Assembly (NCBI GenBank): GCA_951406725.2
Contig: OX597842.1
Span: 21,886,001 to 21,950,000 of the forward strand
Origin: Octopus vulgaris
Lineage: Eukaryota
Direction of reading: 5' to 3'
DNA: 64,000 nt
In this document: one piece after another, positions 12,044 to 14,777 of the stretch
Numbering within the stretch: the stretch's first letter is position 1
Layout: every line of letters starts with the position of its first letter
The notes under the pieces: model-generated
The model's input: only the letters and a program-made list of their open reading frames with translations
Databases searched by the model: none
What the model was told of the DNA's origin: nothing
Position numbers and translations under genes: made by a program

Positions 12044-12322
12044 CCTTATAGTATACCATTGCCTTTCTGAGCAAATAATTTGCCACAGATATGGCTTCTC
12101 ACCTGTATGAACGCGTCTGTGCCTAGTCAAGCCTTGATTTCGAGAGAATGATCTACCACAGGTATCACAATGATATGGCTTCTCTCCTGTATGAATACGT
12201 CGGTGAGTGAGTAGGTTAGTTTTCCGAGAGAATAATTTACCACAGGTATCACAATCATATGATGTCTTGCCCTTTTCATTCTCTACATCATCAGATAAAT
12301 CAATTATTTTAGATAGCCTTCT
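12044..12322 (-). pseudogene. Antisense C2H2 ZNF fragment (acidic leader + 2 fingers)
   Basis: ORF 11939..12325: [44 protein letters not shown]... Confidence 0.85.
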
Positions 12323-12662
12323 CACTGTATTTGGCTATCTGATGTCATCTACAGTATGGATATATTTGAGGAATTCCTTCATGTCAGTAGAGTTTAAAAA
12401 ATGAGAGAAAGAGAGAGAAAATAGAATTTCCAAGACTAGTATTCACTATGATTGTTTCAACCCATCGTGTATCTGTGCCTCGCAGGTGAGATTCTGTACG
12501 AACAGTTGTGGGGCATCCTTTGATGCAGACATGTCTTATCAGGTGACTTATCAAATGGTTCTTCGTATTTAAATTTCTGTTTTGCTTATTTCGATTAGAA
12601 TTCATTTTGGTATTTGTTACATGTCAAGCTTCTTTCAGTTTCCATCAAACATGTCTTTGATT

Positions 12663-12733
12663 GGCCACTCTGGGACTGAACCCAGGACCATGTGGTTGGG
12701 AAGCCAACTTCTTACCACACGACCATCCCTGCA
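12663..12733 (-). mobile_element. Decayed tRNA-like SINE head (also ~29462, ~36949, ~50670, ~63048)
   Basis: Reverse complement TGGTCGTGTGGTAAGAAG...CCCAACCACATGGTCCTGGGTTCAGTCCCA has A-box-like and B-box-like motifs. Confidence 0.6.
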
Positions 12734-12794
12734 CTTCTACAGCCATGTCTATATAAAAATGTAGTAAAACTTTCACTGCTTTAATCCCTCTAAT

Positions 12795-12846
12795 TCCTAA
12801 TTATCTTGTATGTTTTACACTGTTGTTTCTCTTTCGTTTCAGATTA
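12795..12846 (+). promoter_or_regulatory. Conserved 3' splice acceptor of the main exon (AG ends at 12842; paralogs 5274, 15949, 29638, 37125, 50846, 63225)
   Basis: CTAAT branch-like motif, then polypyrimidine TGTTGTTTCTCTTTCGTTTCAG, near-invariant in all 7 units. Confidence 0.7.
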
Positions 12847-13397
12847 TCAGATGACATCTGCTTCACAGGATTTTTACATAAGCAACGTCATTAGAATGGA
12901 AAGTCTTTTGAAGACTGAGCAAAGATGTTATACAAAACACGTATAACCCTGTTTCTATAAATATTTACTGAATTACTGCAAAATATATCTTCTGAACTCT
13001 GACATATATGTAGCAAAATTTCTCTTCTTTATTGTCTGGAATACACAGAAAATTATATTTGCATATTAATTAATCATTTAGCATTTAAACTGGCACAAAT
13101 ATTCTGACCCCTCACACCCACCCTACACGGTCATTCTAAAAGTAAACAATCACAACATTGAAATCTGAACATGATAACATAATGAATGATTAATTCAGAA
13201 GAATTTCAATAAACATTCTATTTGACTGATTAATCTGAATGTTAATGAGTTAAAGCAATTAAGAAGGCAGTTTGCAGCATCTTCAGATATTAACAAAGAT
13301 CACTTTTGATGGAGATATATCAGTAGAAATATTTGTTAAGAGCACTATACGAGAAGAAGGAAAACCTTTGTGTACTGTGACAAGAGAAAGGAAAATT

Positions 13398-14465
13398 ATG
13401 GAAAATGAATTACGTAGGAGTGAAGTTGAATGTAAAAGAGAGTCTGAAGAAATTGATTTTTCTGATGAGGAAAAGAATGAAAAGAGCAAAAATTCATTTG
13501 ATTGTGATATCTGTGGCAAGTCGTTCTCTTGGAAAGCTAAGTTAGTCATTCACGAACGTACTCATACAGGAGAGAAGCCATATCACTGTGAGATCTGTGA
13601 CAAATCGTTTTCTCAAAACAATTCCTTAACCAAGCACAAGCATGTTCATACAGGAGAAAAACCATATCACTGTGAAATCTGTGGTAAGTCTTTCTCTCAA
13701 AGCGAACACTTAACTAGGCACAAGAGTTGTGTTCATACAGGAGAAAAACCATATCACTGTGATATCTGTGGTAAGTCTTTCTCTCGAAGCGAAAACTTAA
13801 CTAGGCACAAGAGTTGTGTTCATACAGGAGAGAAACCACATCACTGTGAAATCTGTGGTGAATCCTTTTCTCAAAACAATCACTTGACCAATCACAAGCG
13901 TGTTCATACGGGAGAAAAACCATATCACTGTGAAATCTGTGGTAAATCTTTCTCTCGAAACGAAAGCTTAACGAGGCACAAGAATGGTGTTCACACAGGA
14001 GAAGCACCATATCACTGTGAAATCTGTGACAAATCATTTTCTCAAAACGATCACTTCACTATGCACAGGCGTGTTCATACAGGAGAAAAACCATATCACT
14101 GTGAAATCTGTGGTAAGTCATTCTCTCGAAACGAAAGCTTAACTAGGCACAGGCGTGTTCATATAGGAGAAAAACCATATCACTGTGAAATCTGTGGTAA
14201 ATTTTTCTCTGAAAACGGTACCTTAACCAAGCACAAGCGTGTTCATACTGGAGAAGAACCATATCACTGTGAAATCTGTGACAAATCTTTCTCTCGAAAC
14301 GATCACTTAACCATGCACAGGCGTGTTCATACAGGAGAAAAACCATATCACTGTGAAATCTGTGGTAAATCTTTCTCTCGAAACGATACCTTAACCAAGC
14401 ACAAGTGTGTTCATACAGGGGAGAAGCCATATCATTGTGATATCTCTGGTAAATCATTTTCTTAA
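13398..14465 (+). CDS. C2H2 zinc-finger protein, 11 fingers (unit 2)
   Basis: First ATG gives [25 protein letters not shown], an acidic leader, followed by CxxC...HxxxH repeats with TGEKPY linkers. Ends in a broken CDISGKSFS* finger. Confidence 0.88.
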
Positions 14466-14777
14466 AATAGTCAGCTGCTTAATCACTGATACATTCATAC
14501 TGGGGGAGAAAACCATATCACTGCGAAAGCTGTGGTAAATCATTCTTTTCAAAATGGTCGCGTAACTATTCACATACGCATTCATACTGGAGAGAAGCCA
14601 TATCACTGTGATATCTGTTGTAAATCATTCTCTACATGGAGTGCATTATTTAAACACAAATACATTCATACAGGAGAAAAGCCATATCATTGTGAAATCT
14701 GTGGTAAATCTTTCTCTCGAAATGATCACTTAACCAAGCACAAGCATGTTCATACAGACAGAGAACACATTTCATGA
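14466..14777 (+). pseudogene. Stranded terminal finger cassette downstream of the unit 2 stop
   Basis: Fingers QNGRVTI, TWSALFK and RNDHLTK, then TDREHIS* (ORF 14532..14777). Confidence 0.8.

Follow-up and report, generated by a model that had tools for sequence, protein, structure and literature searches.

Organization of the zinc finger cluster

The window analysed here is a 64,000-nucleotide stretch of the Octopus vulgaris genome (C29:21886001-21950000, contig OX597842.1; 2.8 Gb in total). It belongs to a cluster of zinc finger genes, of which 664 kb, the window included, were assembled for comparison. The genes stand in tandem units, each consisting of one long exon for a short acidic leader followed by 6-23 C2H2 fingers. 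The sense arrays match PF00096 in tandem along an open frame (Pfam, E=1e-61), and the protein-search matches included octopod proteins with 46-51% identity over 52-59% of the query. The reading frame of unit 2 is as follows:

13398..14465, plus strand: zinc finger reading frame of unit 2, 355 aa, 11 fingers in frame before the stop

Two further finger matches lie past this stop, up to 14753. The segment 14463-14777 and matching tails elsewhere indicate a common stop or frameshift that cuts the last 2-3 fingers off the main frame in many units. Some frames run leader-fingers-leader-fingers, with a second leader within the array (window 17329-17503; also C29:21883643, 22021691, 22045223 and 22077080). 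Between the units are fragments that we take, from their motifs, to be LINE-type reverse transcriptase/endonuclease (865-1476, 18484-19112, 21155-24060, 43019-43694 and 55864-57788), and a 2-kb (TA)n array occupies 40928-42976.

Inverted cassettes upstream of the finger arrays

The initial annotation had described antisense finger cassettes upstream of the arrays in units 2, 5 and 6, decayed in unit 1 and missing from the type B units 4 and 7. All of these were recovered where it had placed them, with insert limits set by comparison with the empty site:

12061..12314, minus strand: cassette of unit 2, with the inverted end of a leader, about 2.6 fingers and an 11-bp deletion
36317..36581, minus strand: cassette of unit 5, full form, 265 bp
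50038..50302, minus strand: cassette of unit 6, limits from the empty-site comparison
4817..4997, minus strand: cassette of unit 1, with an 84-bp deletion (one finger unit lost) and two in-frame stops
29113..29117, no strand: empty site of unit 4 (type B), flanks joined
62702..62706, no strand: empty site of unit 7 (type B), flanks joined

The full cassette comprises the end of a minus-strand leader plus about 2.6 C2H2 fingers. Minus-strand fingers were located at 12107-12253, 36374-36520, 50095-50241 and 4874-4936, and the unit 5 copy matches the Pfam zf-C2H2 model with E=2e-15. The distance to the array had been given as 1.1-1.3 kb, in agreement with loops of 1129 nt in unit 2 and about 1340 nt in units 5 and 6. 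The description as minus-strand leader plus fingers holds from IDLSDD onward, which derives from a zinc finger gene, but the PNTVRRL part is host intron read through.

Origin and spread of the cassette

A genome search (40 of 343 candidates scored) found 21 full cassette copies, all within C29:19.0-22.2 Mb, and the same 21 were present in the fetched DNA. The site is empty in 9 of 9 type B and type C units and in all three of the older paralogues checked (L066, L067 and L070, on C27 and C29), where 3 bases separate the flank matches. The flanks are also joined without a cassette in a copy on C11 (L063). Because the flanks are contiguous in each of these groups, the cassette is an insertion. 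The three older paralogues belong to a finger subfamily on C27 and at C29:23.87-23.90 Mb that forms head-to-head pairs with the same intron.

Loss of the cassette from type B was also considered; it was rejected in view of the contiguous flanks in type B/C units, the older paralogues and C11, together with the tree. In the tree a single branch sets the 21 cassette units apart from the rest; it occurs in 76% of bootstrap trees and has a support of 78/98, which falls under the tree tool's starred level. They are the largest lineage, with 21 of the 30 units having this intron segment.

Compared with the family majority, the cassette carries 51 differences over 265 sites. Third positions account for 25 of the 47 coding-frame differences, and all zinc ligands and linkers are intact; we therefore conclude that the cassette acquired these differences as part of a functional paralogue and that its insertion only slightly preceded the radiation of the copies. 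A source gene with more than 89% identity did not turn up: among the 40 of 281 candidates scored the best non-cassette matches reached 83-87%, and a further match reached 89% over part of the length. A one-finger relic on C19 (87% over 107 bp) has leader features in common with the cassette.

The cassette likely entered once, by templated DNA insertion, and likely spread through segmental duplication as a neutral passenger. It resembles the templated inverted insertions made by template switching in that DNA of a kind present nearby was copied, over a short length and inverted, into a sharp site, with no poly-A tail and no clear target duplication. It differs from them in that its template was not found at high identity and that the microhomology at its ends, just 3-5 bases, is ambiguous.

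Candidate promoter upstream of the cassette

Sites with a possible bearing on transcription and splicing were located upstream of the unit 2 array:

8804..9058 (end approximate), plus strand: CpG-rich solo LTR of unit 2, with donor AAG/GTACGT at 9021; candidate promoter and first exon
2736-2995 and 33086-33345: further copies of the same solo LTR
12486..12491, plus strand: strong donor-like site CAG/GTGAGA downstream of the cassette, by a simple consensus score; possible alternative first-exon end
12822..12842, plus strand: polypyrimidine tract and acceptor of the coding exon, the only acceptor passing the filter in 8700-13400

The element is regarded as a solo LTR because two copies of it flank zinc-knuckle and integrase-like frames on C5 (L069), where they form a direct pair, 85% alike and 2.8 kb apart, around retroelement frames. 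There the zinc knuckle passes, the integrase core (E=3e-6) is under the curated cut-off and one of three frames has no family. LTR copies are 75-84% alike elsewhere in the genome and 85-100% alike in 16 family copies, and the element sits inside a SINE-like repeat. Wherever a unit follows, the LTR is on the strand of the finger gene, and with its GT donor it is likely a co-opted promoter and first exon of the finger units.

Twelve of the 21 cassette copies are preceded by an LTR in sense orientation that has a GT donor, is always on the strand of the gene and sits 2.2-4.3 kb ahead of the acceptor; the cassette would therefore be intronic in these 12. The other nine, unit 6 included, have no LTR directly upstream. 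In the 12 copies, the LTR would put cassette and array into one pre-mRNA, as the initial annotation had proposed. The LTR was also found 1.3 kb upstream of three cassette-less units (C29:22017635, 22107797 and 19512078), two of which lack the usual start.

Alternatively, the cassette may be inert DNA, either because transcription starts downstream of it or because the units are silent, and no duplex would form. The top-scoring of the 11 donors listed in 8700-13400 is the one at 12486, past the cassette, and its stronger score leaves room for a downstream start. The nine copies without an LTR point the same way, and the neutral evolution of the cassette described below fits this explanation equally well. 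The consistent strand and donor of the LTR in the other 12 copies argue against it, and we consider it unlikely.

Contigs from 4 of the 24 listed sequencing runs were compared with the region; they are presumed to be RNA, may contain DNA, and have rare variants dropped. One of these possibly DNA-derived contigs bridges the left junction of the cassette, others continue unspliced over the donors at 9021 and 12486 and over the acceptor, and one ends at 9018 with 30 letters beyond unaligned. No joint between 9021 and 12843 was seen among the 15 rows listed of 202 for these contigs, which may contain DNA and therefore speak neither for nor against expression.

Predicted pairing of cassette and array

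The suggestion that one cassette could pair in many registers along the array was supported at the level of predicted structure. The cassette matches the array in 16, 24 and 25 registers, with 70-89% identity. The duplex in the best register was predicted at -255 to -317 kcal/mol, against -87 to -91 kcal/mol for shuffled sequences (20 each), and all registers were far more stable than the shuffles. In unit 2 all 25 inverted pairs listed, of 33 found, include the cassette, the longest spanning 236 nt at 77%. Although the arms are only 77-80% complementary over 226-247 nt, mismatch did not prevent a stable predicted duplex: folding of the regions from cassette to finger 3 produced 187-216 long-range pairs and was 171-208 kcal/mol more favourable than local folding alone, a gain that amounted to 27 kcal/mol in the cassette-less unit 4.

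The registers were not equivalent. Register 1, which runs from the leader to finger 3, was best in 16 of the 20 units compared (unit 1, with its inverted array, being set aside) and led by 30-90 kcal/mol in most units, the median of the other registers lying at about -200 to -240 kcal/mol. Three of the four units that do not prefer register 1 hold a second, internal leader. Its targets are as follows:

13442..13678, plus strand: preferred pairing target of unit 2, covering the leader end, fingers 1 and 2 (F1, F2) and the start of finger 3 (F3)
37922 onward (unit 5) and 51637 onward (unit 6): preferred pairing targets, covering the same elements

Register 1 includes the leader and is made first, and a duplex of about 260 nt, once formed, would be unlikely to slide.

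By a simple rule, ADAR favours a target A in a stem with a 5' U or A. With this rule applied to register 1, each unit has on average 10.6 favourable recoding As in the leader and linkers, 5.5 in the framework, none in the zinc ligands and 1.6 in the specificity codons. The specificity codons thus receive 1.6 of 17.7 favourable sites (9%), while their share of all As is 10%. A fossil A>G signature was not found in the DNA, where A>G makes up 15 of the 51 family-to-cassette changes and, in the target, 4 of 32 in type A against 12 of 61 in the others. Across the four runs, whose contigs are possibly DNA and have rare variants dropped, substitution places numbered 51 for A>G, 78 for T>C, 66 for G>A and 54 for C>T. 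Six A>G differences were among the 40 listed of 207 in these possibly DNA-derived contigs; five correspond to a paralogue's G, and none falls in the cassette or register 1, counts that weigh neither for nor against editing.

Sequence evolution of the cassette

Diversity among the 21 paralogous copies was 0.037 in the cassette and 0.037, 0.031 and 0.027 in the flanks, in a comparison that covered paralogues only and omitted the far-left and exon segments (indels, alignment edge). The acceptor tract was the most conserved segment of the region (pi=0.014), and the test can therefore detect constraint. Changes among the cassette copies (17 synonymous, 32 not) were as expected without coding constraint (P=0.34). 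No fit of cassettes to their own arrays was found in 20 units (own -285.2, other -284.8 kcal/mol, an advantage of 0.4; P=0.28), and cassette-less arrays pair with the cassettes equally well (-296 vs -292 kcal/mol). The target in cassette units had no deficit of synonymous change (6:15 vs 12:33, P=1.0; 8 of 44 units, gapped or missing the start, omitted). Derived alleles were in excess at mismatched positions, 11 of 51 improving the pairing (P=0.019) and 34 of 51 worsening it; this excess had P=0.14 once CpG sites were removed, and the copies recombine, with 737 of 1953 site pairs incompatible. In copies as young as these, with about 3.7% divergence, weak selection would escape notice. The large size of the cassette lineage could also come from selection.

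A different possibility is that the duplex acts as a dosage damper, cutting output through hyper-editing, slowed splicing or small RNAs, which might also hit paralogues, and that the lineage could in this way expand or decay at low cost. The stable predicted duplex lies directly past the start codon, and silencing of expanding paralogue families by hairpin RNAs has a precedent in Drosophila (PMC10317233, accessible text). The cassette lineage is not only the largest but also more often truncated than type B/C: 7 of 20 cassette units are at least 75% in frame, as opposed to 7 of 8 type B/C units (P=0.033), and the cassette may therefore not be neutral for its own gene. Against all other units (15 of 24) the difference had P=0.13, with near-duplicates making the counts dependent, and units with no upstream region at all were truncated equally often (8 of 16 in frame over 75% or more). 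The cassette is also without constraint, splicing would remove the intronic arm, and even in register 1 the longest helices between these roughly 80% complementary arms are 18-24 bp. Dosage damping is unlikely.

A built-in, selected sliding guide, of the kind raised in the initial annotation, would find its partner in many registers and let ADAR change the DNA-contact residues, widening the finger repertoire. Every register is indeed far more stable than the shuffles, and recoding is extensive in coleoids, as reported in the portion of PMC9068888 available. Nevertheless, this proposal was not borne out and is very unlikely: cassette diversity is at the level of its flanks with no co-variation with the own array, one register is preferred, the specificity codons hold a mere 9% of favourable sites, F1 is the least variable finger, and the target shows no shortage of synonymous change. 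Known guides, by comparison, are conserved (PMC5705066, accessible text). Least probable of all, to a degree that it can be set aside, is a small minus-strand zinc finger gene or exon: the majority frame runs for 85 codons without a stop and keeps its zinc ligands, but there is a stop just upstream and no start codon, changes among copies are neutral, and the fingers carry a stop or frameshift in 4 of 21 copies and have lost one finger in 2 of 21, one copy being counted in both groups.

Inverted array of unit 1

Unit 1 stands apart from the other cassette units. Its array is itself inverted and shares the strand of the cassette, so that no fold-back can form:

5406..6693, minus strand: finger array of unit 1, inverted as two pieces, preceded by a normal acceptor region and followed by a normal 3' tail

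Within 2736-6800 the LTR with its donor, the cassette and the acceptor (5274) are in sense, and the 1.3-kb array is inverted. This second inversion of finger DNA shows that such accidents recur in the cluster. If unit 1 were transcribed and spliced, the product would carry antisense sequence in its exon, with 75-88% complementarity to the family mRNAs, and would be a stronger candidate for action in trans than the cassette.

Discussion

The cassette is real, structurally plausible and probably accidental. The explanation that we favour, and hold to be somewhat better than an even chance, is a single inverted insertion that became a neutral passenger, forms an intron-exon duplex where the LTR drives transcription, and is edited by ADAR incidentally, with no selected role. 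A 265-bp inverted piece of a paralogous zinc finger exon would have entered one site upstream of the coding exon and then spread by duplication to 21 related units. The upstream LTR would drive transcription through cassette and array, and the intron with the cassette would fold onto the leader and F1-F3 until it is spliced out. Editing of the duplex by ADAR would be incidental, mostly in the leader, linkers and framework. The insertion against an empty site, the 21 copies, their flank-level divergence and their complementarity to the array are observed; the intronic position, the formation of the duplex before splicing, the incidental editing and the absence of a selected role are what we infer.

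Editing complementary sequences (ECSs) are known from the intron of GluA2. The structures behind coleoid recoding are largely inferred from conservation around the sites. In Drosophila, Syt1 is a further example, and ECSs are conserved and site-selective (PMC5705066, accessible text). The cassette is like an ECS in being a non-coding arm complementary to the coding sequence of the same gene and able to form an intron-exon duplex. However, its arm is 265 nt long, comes from the coding repeat of the family, changes at the pace of its flanks and shows no co-variation with its target; because the tests for conservation and co-variation failed, we do not class it as an ECS.

A parallel is offered by inverted Alu pairs and editing inducer elements (PMC4053975) and by exon-intron dsRNAs (PMC11838218), as far as the accessible texts describe them. 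These share with the cassette an accidental inverted repeat of about 80%, 1-1.3 kb apart, and the cassette duplex would likewise be a likely ADAR substrate that is lost at splicing. Here, in contrast, the inverted piece is a gene fragment and not a transposon, and the coding sequence is one arm, with many registers. Ubiquitous editing in squid tends to coincide with repeats within introns and UTRs, and recoding at low levels may arise as a side effect (PMC9068888, available portion). The Nmy/Dox hairpin RNAs of Drosophila are similar, going by the accessible text of PMC10317233, in involving an inverted piece of a fast-expanding family that is complementary to many paralogues; in the octopus, however, one arm belongs to a predicted intron and the other is supplied by the exon of the gene itself.

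Background on octopus finger genes is given in PMC10547256 (accessible text). The window shares with the coleoid C2H2 clusters of PMC9068888 tandem arrays of single-coding-exon finger genes in large clusters, but inverted intronic finger fragments are not described in the accessible text of that paper. Nor did a literature search limited to openly available main texts list a paper on inverted finger fragments in cephalopod introns.

A stable intron-exon duplex is predicted in about 20 near-identical genes, and the three LTR-bearing sister units without the cassette are natural controls. Together they provide a natural test of whether a long accidental duplex suffices to recode or damp an octopus coding exon, even with a neutral arm. 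A stronger version, in which the accidental inversion became a built-in antisense arm that folds on the array, recodes it through ADAR or damps it, and helped the lineage outgrow its cassette-less sisters, is in our view unlikely. If it were true that the cassette recodes or damps the finger genes, it would link two hallmarks of the coleoids, the expansion of C2H2 genes and RNA editing.
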